Shown here: piece by piece, positions 27,341 through 31,666 of the stretch | Numbering within the stretch: the first letter of the stretch is position 1 | How the letters are laid out: each line of letters starts with the position of its first letter | NCBI GenBank assembly: GCA_041659505.1 | Contig: JBAZYF010000004.1 | Coordinates: 14,922-78,921 of the forward strand | Origin: Parcubacteria group bacterium | Lineage (GTDB): Bacteria > Patescibacteriota > Minisyncoccia > Moranbacterales > UBA2206 | Length of the DNA: 64,000 bases | Reading direction: 5' to 3' | The notes under the pieces: model-generated | The model's input: the letters and a program-made list of their open reading frames with translations, nothing else | What the model was told of the DNA's origin: nothing | The model's database searches: none | Made by a program: the position numbers and the translations under genes

Positions 27341-27509
27341 TGTCATTCCCGCGAAGGCGGGAATCCAGGTTCCACTAGTTATAAACTCTATAAAATCGAG
27401 ATACAAGTCTTGGTGCCTTCCCGTTTCAGATAGTCTTGAATTTTAATAATTCGTTTTTTCTTAATTTTGAATCTGAGGTGCCTAGATTCCCGCCTTCGCG
27501 GGAATGACA
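27341..27509. repeat. MITE-like palindromic element, TGTCATTCCC family, copy 1 (TIR TGTCATTCCCGCGAAGGCGGGAATCCAGG)
   Basis: Ends are reverse complements of each other. Each end is itself a hairpin ATTCCCGC-GAAG-GCGGGAAT. About 85% identical to 54157..54324. Confidence 0.8.
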
Positions 27510-27580: not shown

Positions 27581-28285
27581 CTAGCGTCTAATTCCCATCT
27601 TCTCAAAATTATCCCCAATTTGCGCTTGGATCTTTTCCAGATTGATTTTCTGGCCTTTCGTCTTTTGCTTCAGATTTTTATCCAAAATCACGTCCTCGCG
27701 ATATTCTTGTAAATAGTAGGCCATAGCGCCTTTTAGCCACTCAGCAATCACCAAAAAATCTTTTTCCCTATGGATACCCGGCACGACCGTCGTACGAAAT
27801 TCATAGGGCAGACGACTATTTTTGATCAACTCAACGCTTAATTTTATCCGCTCCGTGTCCACTTTCACACCGACCGTTTCGCCATATCGTCCAAGCTGAT
27901 TTTTAATATCCATCGCCACAAAATCCAACAGTTTTTCATCTAGCAGTTTTTTCAAAATATCCGGTCGTGCGCCGTTTGTGTCCAGTTTTATGCGAAAACC
28001 CAATGCGCGCACTTTTTGGACAAACTCGATCAAATCCGGTTGCAAAGTTGGCTCACCGCCCGTAATGCAAACTCCTTCCAGTTTGCCGATTCTTTTTTTC
28101 AAAAATGCGAAAAACTCCCGTTCCGTTTTATTCTCCATTCCTGATGTCTTGATACCCGCGCCCAAAACCAATTCCGGATTATGACAAAACGGACACCGAA
28201 AATTACAGCCAACAGTAAAAACGGTGGTTGCCAAGGTTCCGGGAAAATCAATCAAAGTTAATTTTTGATAGCCGCCGATGTTCAT
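27581..28285 (-). CDS. nrdG: anaerobic ribonucleoside-triphosphate reductase activating protein (radical SAM)
   Basis: GCNFRCPFCHN CxxxCxxC cluster and GGEPTLQPD. Sits in the operon with nrdD. Confidence 0.88.
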   Translation of the reverse strand: MNIGGYQKLTLIDFPGTLATTVFTVGCNFRCPFCHNPELVLGAGIKTSGMENKTEREFFAFLKKRIGKLEGVCITGGEPTLQPDLIEFVQKVRALGFRIKLDTNGARPDILKKLLDEKLLDFVAMDIKNQLGRYGETVGVKVDTERIKLSVELIKNSRLPYEFRTTVVPGIHREKDFLVIAEWLKGAMAYYLQEYREDVILDKNLKQKTKGQKINLEKIQAQIGDNFEKMGIRR

Positions 28286-28321
28286 ACTAATAATTTATGT
28301 TAGAAAATTTTGTTTATATCC

Positions 28322-28472
28322 CCTTCGCCCTCCGGGAGAAGGTGGCCGAAGGCCGGATGAGGGAAAGGGCTTAATATTAGGCAAAAGCTAAATTAGCACA
28401 GACTGTTTTTGATTTATAGCCCTTGCCCTAACCTGTCACGTGCTCGTGACATCCTCTCCCGAGGGGCGAGGA
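28322..28472. repeat. palindromic intergenic element (TIR CCTTCGCCCTCCGGGAGAAGG ... CCTCTCCCGAGGGGCGAGGAGG; inner GTCACGTGCTCGTGAC palindrome)
   Basis: The left arm and the reverse complement of the right arm align with few mismatches. Confidence 0.6.
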
Positions 28473-28537
28473 GGAAAATAAATATAATTCAGGGCAATCC
28501 CGAAAAATTCAAGATTGCCCCGCTATCTTTCTATTAT

Positions 28538-28798
28538 TTAGCAACAAGCAACGCCGTCCAGCTTGAATTCCTTGCGATCATCAAATTCCGCTTGTTTGCC
28601 TCCGTTCCATTGCGCTACCGGTCGGATATAGCCTACTACTCGAGAATAGACTTCGGTTCTTTGAAAATTACGTAGCACTGGATCGGCCTCATGACAACTC
28701 TTACACTTACAAAACTCTCCACTCTCTACGACATAACTCATATACTCTTCGTCCATCTTCAGCTCTCGGCCACAATCGTGGCAAATTTGTTTTTGCAT
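28538..28798 (-). CDS. stand-alone NrdD C-terminal homolog: zinc ribbon + glycyl-radical loop (GrcA-like candidate spare-part for class III RNR)
   Basis: 86 aa. CHDCG...CKCKSCH, then EVYSRVVGYIRPVAQWNGGKQAEFDDRKEFK, which is near-identical to the last 45 aa of the adjacent NrdD. The nt-level differences are concentrated at third codon positions. Confidence 0.65.
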   Translation of the reverse strand: MQKQICHDCGRELKMDEEYMSYVVESGEFCKCKSCHEADPVLRNFQRTEVYSRVVGYIRPVAQWNGGKQAEFDDRKEFKLDGVACC

Positions 28799-28835: not shown

Positions 28836-31052
28836 TTATTTTTTCTTTTCTACTTTAAATTCCTTGCGATCATCGAACTCTGCTTGCTTGCCACTGTTCC
28901 ATTGCTCGACCGGTCGAATGTACCCTACAACACGGGAATACACTTCGGCTTTTTGCTCTGCGACGCACTTAGGACAATATGGATGCTCACCATTGATGTA
29001 GCCATGCACCGGGCAGATACTGAAAGTTGGCGTGAGGGTGAAATATGGAAGGGCATAGTTTTCCGCAATCTTGCGCACTAATTGCTTGGTCGTTTCGATG
29101 TCCCAAATGCGCTCTCCCAAAAATCCATGCAGCACCGTTCCGCCGGTATATTTCGTCTGCAATTTATCCTGCAGATCCAACGCTTCAAAAATATCTTCTG
29201 TGTGCTGGACTGGCAATTGCGATGAATTGGTGTAATATGGTTCAGCATTCTTCTCCTTAACTTTCTGGTCGTTGGCAAAAATAATATCCGGATGCTTTTT
29301 CTTGTCCATCCGCGCCAAGCGGTACGAAGTACCTTCGGCCGGCGTTGCTTCGAGATTATAGAGATTACCGGTTTCTTTTTGATAGCCGATGATTCTTTTG
29401 CGCATATGCGTCAGGATTTCTTCTGCCATTTTTTGTCCAGCCGGAGTCGTAATATCTTTCCCAATCAGATTAAGGAGCGCTTCGTTCATGCCGACTAGAC
29501 CGATTGTCGAGAAATGATTCGCCCAATATTGTCCACGGCGCATTTTGATCGGTGCCAGATAGAATTTGGTATAAGGATAAAGTCCGCCCTCGGTCAGTTT
29601 TTCTACCATCGTGCGTTTTGTCTCAAGACTCTCTTGCGCCAGATCCATTAGATGATTGAGTTTTGCCAAAAATTCTTGTTTGTTTTTTGCAATATATCCC
29701 AAGCGAGGCAGATTGATTGTCACCACGCCGATCGATCCAGTCAGTGGATTGGCACCAAACAGTCCGCCACCGCGCTTGTGCAATTCCCGATTATCCAAAC
29801 GCAACCGGCAACACATCGAACGCGCATCATCAGGATCCATATCTGAGTTCACAAAGTTGGCAAAGTACGGAATACCATATTTAGCAGTCATTTCCCAAAT
29901 CGCATCGAAACGCTTATCTGTCCAGTCAAAATCTTTGCCGATGTTATAGGTCGGGATGGGGAAAGTGAAAATCCGGCTGGCAGCGTCCCCCTCTGTCATC
30001 ACTTCGGCAAATGCCTTATTGATCAGATTCATCTCTTCTTGGAATTCACCATAAGTTTCTTTCTGGGGAAAACCGCCAAAAATCACTGCTTCATTTTTCA
30101 AGTTCTTGGGACAAGTGATGTCCATCGTGATATTAGAAAATGGCGTTTGGAATCCCACGCGCGTCGACACATTCATATTAAACACGTAAGACTGAATTTC
30201 TTGCTTAACCTCAGCATAAGTCAATTTATCATAGCGCACGAATGGAGCGAGCAAGGTGTCAAAATTGGAAAAAGCTTGCGCGCCGGCCACTTCACCTTGC
30301 GTCGTATAGGTAAAATTGACCATTTGTCCCAAAATTGAACCCAAGTGTTTGGCTGGTTTGCAAGCCACTTTTCCTGGCACACCAGTAAACCCACGGCGCA
30401 AAAGATCTTGCAAATCCCAACCGCAACAATAGGCTGCCAACAGTTGCAAATCATGAATGTGGAAATCTCCGCCCTCATGTGCCTCACGGATCGCTCTGGT
30501 GTACACACGATTCATCCAATATTTCGAGCTGACAATCGAGGAAATGTAATTATTAAGACCTTGGAGCGAATAAGCCATATTGGCGTTTTCTTTCACTTTC
30601 CAGTCGATTTCTTGGATATATTTATCCACCAGATTGACCGCCTCATCCAATGATTCCTGCGCTTCGCGATTTTTGCGATGTTGTTCGCGATAAAGGATAT
30701 AGGCCTTGGCAGTTTCTTCAAAATCCAAAATCATCAGCACTCTTTCCACCAGATCCTGGATCTCTTCGATCTCCGGCACATAACCTTTTTTATGTTTTCG
30801 CCCCAAAAGCTTCACCACTTTTTCCGTCACTTTCTTGGCATCATCCGCCGTACCTTCTTTGGTCGTCACAAAAGCCTTCGCCACTCCTTTAGTAATTTTC
30901 GCCTGGTCAAAATTCGCCACATTGCCATTACGCTTGATGACTTTTTTGATTTCTATATCCCCGCCCGCATCGCTACGCGAAGCGTTGCGGGCGGGCCCGC
31001 CTGATTTCTTCACTTCATTCCCCTTGCCGCTTTTTTTCACTTTTTTTGCCAT
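28836..31052 (-). CDS. nrdD: anaerobic ribonucleoside-triphosphate reductase (class III) with N-terminal ATP-cone
   Basis: ATP-cone (VIKRNGNVANFDQAKITKG). Glycyl-radical enzyme body. C-terminal CPVHGY...CPKC zinc site followed by the RVVGY glycyl loop. Confidence 0.93.
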   Translation of the reverse strand: MAKKVKKSGKGNEVKKSGGPARNASRSDAGGDIEIKKVIKRNGNVANFDQAKITKGVAKAFVTTKEGTADDAKKVTEKVVKLLGRKHKKGYVPEIEEIQDLVERVLMILDFEETAKAYILYREQHRKNREAQESLDEAVNLVDKYIQEIDWKVKENANMAYSLQGLNNYISSIVSSKYWMNRVYTRAIREAHEGGDFHIHDLQLLAAYCCGWDLQDLLRRGFTGVPGKVACKPAKHLGSILGQMVNFTYTTQGEVAGAQAFSNFDTLLAPFVRYDKLTYAEVKQEIQSYVFNMNVSTRVGFQTPFSNITMDITCPKNLKNEAVIFGGFPQKETYGEFQEEMNLINKAFAEVMTEGDAASRIFTFPIPTYNIGKDFDWTDKRFDAIWEMTAKYGIPYFANFVNSDMDPDDARSMCCRLRLDNRELHKRGGGLFGANPLTGSIGVVTINLPRLGYIAKNKQEFLAKLNHLMDLAQESLETKRTMVEKLTEGGLYPYTKFYLAPIKMRRGQYWANHFSTIGLVGMNEALLNLIGKDITTPAGQKMAEEILTHMRKRIIGYQKETGNLYNLEATPAEGTSYRLARMDKKKHPDIIFANDQKVKEKNAEPYYTNSSQLPVQHTEDIFEALDLQDKLQTKYTGGTVLHGFLGERIWDIETTKQLVRKIAENYALPYFTLTPTFSICPVHGYINGEHPYCPKCVAEQKAEVYSRVVGYIRPVEQWNSGKQAEFDDRKEFKVEKKK

Positions 31053-31094: not shown

Positions 31095-31544
31095 TTATTT
31101 ATCAAATGTATCCAACTCCCGCTTAAAACTTTCGATATTCGCAAATGATTTATAGACACTAGCAAACCGCACATAGGCCACTTCATCCAACTCGCGCAGT
31201 TTTTTGAGAATGAGCTTGCCGATTTCGCGCGAAGTGATTTCTGGTTTTTCTCTTGAACGAATTTCGTACTCAATTTCTCCGATAAATTTGGCAATCTTCT
31301 CTTCCGAGACTGGACGTTTCTCAAGCGCCTTACGCACTCCTGTCTCGATCTTTGGCCGGGAATAGTCCACCCGTGTGCCATTCCTCTTTAGTACTGAGAG
31401 GCGCAAGAGTTCGACTTCCTCGTAAGTACTAAAACGCGCTTCACATTTCAGGCATTCGCGCCTTCGGCGTGTAATCTTGCCCTCATTGGTTTCCCGCGAA
31501 TCGACGACCTTGGTTTCAGTATTATTACAAAACGGACAATTCAT
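31095..31544 (-). CDS. nrdR: transcriptional repressor NrdR (start at internal MNCPFC; coordinates of the start approximate to +/-1)
   Basis: MNCPFCNNTETKVVDSRE...ITRRRRECLKCEARFSTYE zinc ribbon plus an ATP-cone. Confidence 0.9.
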   Translation of the reverse strand: MNCPFCNNTETKVVDSRETNEGKITRRRRECLKCEARFSTYEEVELLRLSVLKRNGTRVDYSRPKIETGVRKALEKRPVSEEKIAKFIGEIEYEIRSREKPEITSREIGKLILKKLRELDEVAYVRFASVYKSFANIESFKRELDTFDK

Positions 31545-31666
31545 ACTTTTTTCTCTTTTTATACTATATATAGTGTACCGCCATAGAATTATACCACAAC
31601 CGAAATTCCTGACAAGGGGCACATTTCAAGCCAAAAACAAGAGTTATCCACAGGGGGGAATTTTGA

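Follow-up and report, generated by a model that had tools for sequence, protein, structure and literature searches.

What is a gene for a protein of only 86 amino acids (aa) doing between nrdD and nrdG, the genes for a class III ribonucleotide reductase (RNR) and its activating enzyme, in a Parcubacteria group bacterium? We addressed this question in a stretch of 64,000 nucleotides (nt) that we call the window (assembly GCA_041659505.1, contig JBAZYF010000004.1, positions 14,922 to 78,921 of the forward strand; coordinates below count from its first letter). An earlier note on this DNA had proposed that the small open reading frame (ORF) duplicates the zinc ribbon and radical tail of the neighbouring NrdD and serves as a spare part for it. 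All glycyl radical enzymes are destroyed by oxygen via chain cleavage at the radical glycine. Such cleavage is established in the literature (PMC13450708, PMC12288474). In pyruvate formate-lyase, a domain lost to oxygen is replaced by GrcA, which the activase of that enzyme activates (PMC8683613, PMC13450708). A 2026 review knows of no spare part outside pyruvate formate-lyase and calls the question open; in agreement with the novelty assumed in the earlier note, we found no report of an NrdD spare part in the accessible literature.

We consider it probable that the small ORF encodes a free-standing glycyl-radical domain (GRD) that is radicalised by NrdG, docks in NrdD and serves as a part for repair after oxygen damage. 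On balance we also favour the wider view that an unrecognised family of NrdD-type GRDs, spread over the Candidate Phyla Radiation, Desulfobacterota, phages and an archaeal virus, is the first spare-part system outside pyruvate formate-lyase, and that in several bacterial lineages it replaces the built-in domain to give a two-subunit class III reductase. The features on which the argument rests are the following.

28538..28798, minus strand: small GRD gene (free-standing glycyl-radical domain), 86 aa plus stop, from ORF call, Pfam NRDD match, family and ratio of non-synonymous to synonymous substitution (dN/dS)
28691..28783, minus strand: zinc-ribbon part of the small protein, with C6, C9, C32 and C35 and conserved H7, D8, K31 and H36
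28556..28663, minus strand: tail of the small protein homologous to NrdD 700-735, with glycine loop and W64-N-x-G-K-x-x-E motif
28628..28642, minus strand: glycine loop R53-V-V-G56-Y57 of the small protein, Gly56 codon at 28631..28633
28541..28546, minus strand: Cys85-Cys86 C-terminus of the small protein, from the orthologue alignment
28836..31052, minus strand: nrdD, class III ribonucleotide reductase, 738 aa, ATP-cone and NRDD
28965..29015, minus strand: NrdD's own zinc ribbon, C680..C696, within nrdD
28848..28955, minus strand: NrdD's own glycine loop, aa 700-735, with Gly710 at 28923..28925
27581..28285, minus strand: nrdG, radical S-adenosylmethionine (SAM) activating enzyme of the NrdG2 type (TIGR02495, 210 bits, cut-off 131)

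A stand-alone domain of the NrdD type

Residues 46-81 of the small protein align with residues 700-735 of the adjacent NrdD at 30 of 36 positions (83% identity; BLASTP, E 2e-20), a match that by this measure is far above chance and that confirms the duplication of the radical tail. It spans R-V-V-G-Y, conserved in both copies, plus W-N-x-G-K-Q-A-E-F-D-D-R-K-E-F, and the peptides quoted in the earlier note proved exact. The two DNA copies are identical at 86 of 108 nt (80%), with synonymous differences of 0.68 and non-synonymous differences of 0.08, so that changes lie mostly at third codon positions; the 75-80% identity with third-position bias that had been estimated is thus reproduced. The small ORF has its own ATG, begins 37 nt past the nrdD stop and lies in a frame different from that of nrdD.

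Matches to domain models and to characterised reductases extend this comparison. Residues 4-78 fall on positions 509-562 of the 562 in Pfam NRDD (PF13597; 47.3 bits, gathering cut-off 26.2), and the protein also matches positions 528-580 of 581 in TIGR02487. Its tail aligns to the glycine loop of T. maritima NrdD (residues 612-644), while alignment of the window NrdD with that of P. copri places Gly710 opposite Gly711 and Cys415 opposite Cys416. In P. copri NrdD the radical domain, residues 676-739, consists of a zinc site, a buried Gly711 loop and a surface tail, and moves as a rigid, highly dynamic body (PMC11226230). Because the small ORF encodes this same set of elements, we take it, from its sequence, to be a complete NrdD radical domain (zinc ribbon, glycine loop and tail) and nothing else. 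In the same order as the cis domains of NrdD (for example P. copri 676-739 and the Gly621 region of T. maritima), it has a putative zinc site, an R-x-x-G-Y loop and a W-N-x-G-K tail. In contrast to them, it is a separate polypeptide with no covalent link to the ten-stranded reductase barrel, and ends in a conserved cysteine pair.

For the zinc ribbon, duplication in the sense of the earlier note did not hold. The ligands of the small protein follow the pattern C6-x2-C9 ... C32-x2-C35, whereas the neighbouring NrdD has C680-P-V-H683 ... C693-P-K-C696. With its four cysteines, the ribbon of the small protein exceeds by about 21 residues that of NrdDs in this clade, which have C-x2-H ... C-x2-C. 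It is related to the NrdD ribbon at the profile level only and is no recognisable, recent copy of its neighbour's. Within 'CKCKSC', C30 is not conserved, the conserved ligands being C6, C9, C32 and C35. An AlphaFold model of the small protein has a mean predicted local distance difference test score (pLDDT) of 67.6 and is best in the zinc ribbon (78-85). A Foldseek search of the PDB with this model returned generic ribosomal zinc-ribbon proteins only (E 0.035 or worse), an uninformative outcome but not a surprising one for a domain whose fold is completed on its partner.

Conservation of the small gene across genomes

Database searches indicate that the free-standing radical domains of the NrdD type make up a family both large and diverse. 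The earlier note had suggested looking in other genomes for ORFs of 80-100 aa next to nrdD, and such ORFs, of 80-110 aa, proved abundant: among 5.8 billion proteins, homologues of the small protein form at least 602 clusters, the best 120 of which are all 80-113 aa long and 58-91% identical across the full length. Organisms named for these best 120 clusters are mostly Moranbacteria, Parcubacteria or Pacebacteria. A profile search of 1.84 billion representatives gave 472 matches at E 1e-10 or better, the best 150 all measuring 42-159 aa. The order nrdR-nrdD-small gene-nrdG recurs across genome loci, with the nrdG context conserved, and a small copy stands beside an intact, full NrdD in the window and in 15 other loci. 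The family has no Pfam, NCBIfam or PHROG model of its own, and source annotations call the small ORFs 'anaerobic ribonucleoside-triphosphate reductase', that is, the reductase itself.

Forty aligned members share the start, C6, C9, C32, C35, H7, D8 and K31, together with 16 invariant tail residues (E49, Y51, S52, R53, V55, G56, Y57, I58, R59, P60, Q63, W64, N65, K68, E71 and R75). The dN/dS of the small gene is about 0.03 against its closest orthologue, L001; against the other 15 orthologues synonymous divergence is saturated (0.75-0.97) and non-synonymous divergence amounts to 0.09-0.37. Intact copies are present in the close relatives L001 and L002. The gene is thus under strong purifying selection rather than a decaying pseudogene, as had been claimed, and is not debris confined to one lineage.

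The C-terminus deserves separate mention. A Cys-Cys, Cys-x-Cys or Cys-x2-Cys ending is nearly invariant in nrdD-adjacent small proteins; a terminal cysteine motif occurs in 30 of 76 short small proteins and, among the cis tails examined, only in L016 ('NPACESC'). H7, D8 and H36, beside the zinc ligands, are also conserved. These cysteines, together with H7, D8 and H36, could possibly form a second metal site or have a redox role.

Reductases without a radical loop of their own

To avoid the bias of loci found via the tail, we searched with the NrdD core only (aa 140-699). This core-seeded search returned 120 close NrdD relatives (83-94% identity), 22 of them without a glycine loop. One (P0314/L243) was set aside, as it lies on a frameshift-ridden contig of 2.9x coverage with both copies present in pieces. 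There remained 21 tail-less NrdDs among 119 usable close relatives (~18%), all ending just past the zinc ribbon. Ten of the 22 loop-less genes were looked up in their contigs, of which nine were genuine and the tenth was L243. An intact small gene lies between nrdD and nrdG in all nine genuine loci, including L251, where the small ORF had not previously been called. Four further tail-less genes were tied to small-protein clusters by longest contigs of identical size in two result lists.

Decayed remnants of the loop are found in tail-less NrdDs, for example '..EVFLKVGEE..'; '..TVYLKVVMAD*' and '..EVFLKVGEEELR..' sit where EVYSRVVGY would be. The same proteins keep the thiyl-cysteine loop SMCCRLRLD and AAYCCGWD (SAYCCGWD in L015), their ratios of non-synonymous to synonymous differences (pN/pS) are 0.06-0.30, and by these signs they look functional. 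A tree of NrdD cores indicates that the cis tail disappeared at least three times independently; loss of the small gene is confined to lineages in which NrdD still has this tail (L037, L040). Since the only radical glycine available to an intact, selected NrdD is here on a separate protein, that protein would have to be activated and to dock into the barrel. The comparisons thus argue strongly that the small protein supplies the glycyl radical in trans to tail-less NrdDs, a point that goes beyond the earlier note. An intron, an intein or read-through was considered for the tail-less arrangement and rejected, as the gaps are just 25-140 nt, the frames vary and the small ORF has its own ribbon.

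Two variants were seen among split loci. Small proteins of the tail-less loci L242, L245-L248 and L250 often form a distinct subgroup (MKKLxCHDCKKELEKGDEYVLYEVVSDKFIKCK...) whose C-terminal extension is rich in lysine and in this resembles the end of full-length NrdD in the clade. In a distant lineage (L071:4894-7123), a truncated NrdD of 687 aa is followed by a 46-aa ORF with glycine loop and tail only (MKKVTRQRCEVYSRVVGYIRPISQWNVGKQAEWGDRKFFKMNSCGC) and without a zinc ribbon, which is either a simpler split or a recent nonsense or frameshift event.

Likeness of the two tails within a genome

In all 16 two-copy genomes the tail of the small protein resembles the NrdD tail of that genome more than it resembles, on average, the NrdD tails of the other genomes. 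Mean within-genome tail identity is 0.879, compared with 0.748 after shuffling, a value not reached in any of 20000 shuffles; as phylogeny is left out of account in the shuffling, the figure is only indicative. Interchangeable tails are expected if both fit one socket and one activase. Across genomes, the two copies diverge at synonymous sites by 0.18 to 0.93. Gene conversion seems to act in the genomes at the low end (0.18-0.38), and it appears that occasional conversion and shared constraint both contribute to the likeness. In the window, recent gene conversion as the sole cause was rejected in view of a synonymous divergence of 0.68-0.75 (depending on the stretch compared), indicating that selection keeps these copies alike. 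Strong purifying selection acts on the cis tail too, in the window and 15 other genomes (non-synonymous 0.00-0.13, synonymous up to 0.93), which means that both copies, and not just one, are maintained.

Copies in oxygen-stress loci

Close relatives of the small protein, 87-112 aa long, are also encoded at sites distant from all nrd genes. Directly upstream of these orphan copies lies a Fur-family gene, with an overlap often of ~29 nt, which among NCBIfam models matches those of PerR best (95-100 bits, below the curated cut-offs; Fur models give ~50-60). Next to the orphan copies stand genes for Fe/Mn superoxide dismutase, rubrerythrin, desulfoferrodoxin or hemerythrin. From this layout the loci look like a compact oxygen-stress operon of Candidate Phyla Radiation bacteria. 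Among 90 free-standing copies from genome and metagenome loci, 32 lie by nrdD or nrdG, 24 within 1.5 kb of oxygen-stress genes and 34 elsewhere; a stress context is seen for 23 of the 29 short orphans. One subfamily is found in both settings, its nrd-linked members being L022, L034 and L102-L104. The occurrence of stand-alone relatives in loci with PerR-like, superoxide dismutase and rubrerythrin genes suggests a tie between the family and oxygen stress, again beyond what the earlier note had proposed, and this association, as read from gene neighbourhoods, is the main support for a role in repair after oxygen damage. The small gene is translationally coupled to the PerR-like gene in the orphan loci L027, L033, L035, L038, L039 and L081-L099 (e.g. 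L035:6622-7264).

Proposed mechanism and competing explanations

NrdG presumably acts on the cis tail and the small protein alike, giving each its radical. It would abstract hydrogen from Gly56 of the small protein, as from Gly710 of NrdD, and the small protein would then insert its glycine loop into the NrdD barrel by the thiyl Cys415, replacing the cis domain. In this genome we infer that the small protein would most likely act as a replacement once oxygen has cleaved NrdD at Gly710, and would restore activity without resynthesis of the 738-aa enzyme, as GrcA/YfiD does for pyruvate formate-lyase. Once cleaved by oxygen, NrdD would resemble those NrdDs that naturally lack a tail and that evidently work together with the small protein. 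The interpretation given in the earlier note is supported by what the sequences offer, namely homology, conservation, purifying selection and strict retention of the small gene where the cis loop is lost.

Some observations weigh against this repair scheme. The tail of the stand-alone AlphaFold model is of low confidence (pLDDT 43-64), and the C-terminal Cys-Cys plays no part in the scheme. The window copy lies in an operon with an NrdR box, not in an oxygen-stress operon, and a cis tail that was lost several times over is equally compatible with a plain two-subunit enzyme and with a repair part. In the main competing explanation, normal catalysis makes ordinary use of the small protein as a radical subunit, alternative or primary, and the cis tail of this genome is a redundant ancestral feature on its way out. 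It agrees with the dependence of some 18% of close NrdD relatives on the small protein in place of a cis loop, and with the co-oriented position of the window gene within an NrdR-controlled nrd operon. In P. copri NrdD, moreover, only one monomer at a time has an ordered radical domain, so that an exchangeable domain is conceivable (PMC11226230). A redundant cis tail, however, would not be expected to be under the strong purifying selection seen in the window and 15 genomes, and a housekeeping subunit leaves unexplained the copies that lie away from nrd genes in oxygen-stress loci. We regard this explanation as unlikely, though not far-fetched. Repair part or regular detachable subunit, the small protein is either way an unrecognised component of class III reductases.

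A second possibility is that the small protein is a decoy or regulator, which would tune activation by competing with NrdD for NrdG or by storing a radical, and would never form part of a complete active site. With zinc ribbon and glycine loop it has the whole element that NrdG recognises, and H7, D8, H36 and the C-terminal Cys-Cys are conserved extras absent from cis tails. In tail-less lineages, however, it holds the sole glycine loop available to an intact, selected NrdD, and a decoy there would mean a dead enzyme; we find this possibility quite improbable. It is scarcely credible that the ORF is a functionless remnant of a duplication, or that it arose artificially from an nrdD that is split or frameshifted. 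Source annotations do name such ORFs as the reductase, as though they were fragments, and the low-coverage contig L243 does have frameshift artefacts. Against this, the start codon and length are kept over hundreds of clusters, dN/dS is 0.03, the zinc ribbon is distinct, the region is of homogeneous base composition, and orphan and phage copies are found a long way from nrdD genes. The frame relative to nrdD varies among loci, which excludes read-through. A foreign origin of the small gene is likewise unsupported, as GC content is even across the locus.

Comparison with GrcA and other radical subunits

With respect to GrcA/YfiD, the likeness drawn in the earlier note holds for analogy and fails for homology. 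No PF01228 match was obtained at E up to 10 for the window protein and four relatives, and membership of the GrcA/YfiD family was rejected; by analogy, the small protein plausibly works like GrcA. In both cases (GrcA/YfiD of E. coli, IPR011140) the parent enzyme keeps its own domain. The small protein has a zinc ribbon, whereas YfiD has a disordered N-terminus, and its putative target is a ribonucleotide reductase, whereas that of GrcA is pyruvate formate-lyase. In some lineages the small protein is the sole radical domain, which is not reported for GrcA. Tail-less lineages also recall NrdB of class I RNR in housing the radical on a separate docking subunit. This is a conceptual analogy only: there is no homology, and a glycyl radical made by a radical-SAM activase contrasts with a tyrosyl radical derived from a metallo-cofactor.

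The small gene is, as far as sequence comparison goes, the first strong candidate for a spare part of NrdD. A spare radical domain for NrdD, if true, would explain how small-genome anaerobes make DNA precursors after transient oxygen. Pairs of tail-less NrdD and small protein offer a ready two-piece system for radical installation, domain docking and radical transfer, and the finding would correct a widespread annotation error, in which the small genes are named as the whole reductase.

Operon structure and flanking sequences

On the minus strand the genes run nrdR, nrdD, the 86-aa ORF and nrdG. The remaining features of the unit are as follows.

31095..31544, minus strand: nrdR, repressor of RNR genes; Pfam Zn_ribbon_NrdR begins at aa 27 of the listed ORF
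31588..31615, minus strand: promoter-like site TTGTCA-16-TATAAT, upstream of nrdR
31561..31576, minus strand: NrdR-box-like palindrome ACACTATATATAGTAT, between the promoter-like site and nrdR
28490..28522, minus strand: terminator-like hairpin of 15 pairs directly past the stop of the small ORF, a consensus match only

The ORF listed for nrdR has a GTG start 26 codons too early, the ribbon beginning at Met27, and judged by this match the nrdR start is probably Met27 (ATG 31544). Both the promoter-like site and the NrdR-box-like palindrome lie inside the 78 nt (31545-31622) before Met27, and 31561..31615 is likely to be the control region of nrdR, nrdD and the small ORF. Because of the placement of the promoter-like site, the palindrome and the 3' hairpin, the small gene looks like a member of an nrd transcription unit under NrdR control.

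A spacer of 252 nt (28286-28537) separates the small ORF from nrdG in the window, compared with ~60 nt in the closest relatives L001 and L002; among relatives its length varies from 47 to 258 nt. In the window it holds the hairpin 28522..28490 and G+C-rich stretches at ~28320-28370 and ~28420-28475, and it has no match to an Rfam family. Just downstream of nrdG lies a 59-nt inverted repeat (27341-27399 and 27451-27509; 75% complementary, arms 51 nt apart). It centres on hairpin units of the TGTCATTCCCGCGAAGGCGGGAATC type and could represent a short palindromic element of a repeated kind.

Viral copies and other variants

Stand-alone NrdD-type radical domains were also found on ~38 viral contigs, with no nrdD or nrdG within 5 kb; examples from IMG/VR are L183:4863-5300, L185:4932-5276, L195:4989-5246 and L175:4947-5309. 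PHROGs place four contigs in a phage context (tail tube, tape measure, endolysin, helicase, SbcC/SbcD and RuvC). The ANMV-1 virus carries a copy of 144 aa (L241:3914-4348, KP703175.1) that is annotated as a whole anaerobic reductase and was read as an entire oxygen-sensitive reductase (PMC4372165). Like Y06I of phage T4, a spare part for pyruvate formate-lyase, these proteins are stand-alone radical domains carried by viruses; Y06I is of the pyruvate formate-lyase type, whereas the present viral copies are of the NrdD type. The phage copies suggest that viruses use the same trick.

Longer forms of 110-135 aa with an N-terminal helix occur in Desulfobacterota, where the neighbours are uninformative. 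In NrdDs labelled Saccharibacteria (L047, L049, L050, L052, L054 and L065), R-V-V-G-F replaces R-V-V-G-Y at the radical loop, and the small protein of L030 has the same Y-to-F change. Finally, four NrdDs measure 1026-1115 aa instead of ~710-740 (L104:889-3984, L154:812-4159, L155:551-3886 and L197:2076-5156), which suggests that these oversized genes hold an inserted element such as an intein.
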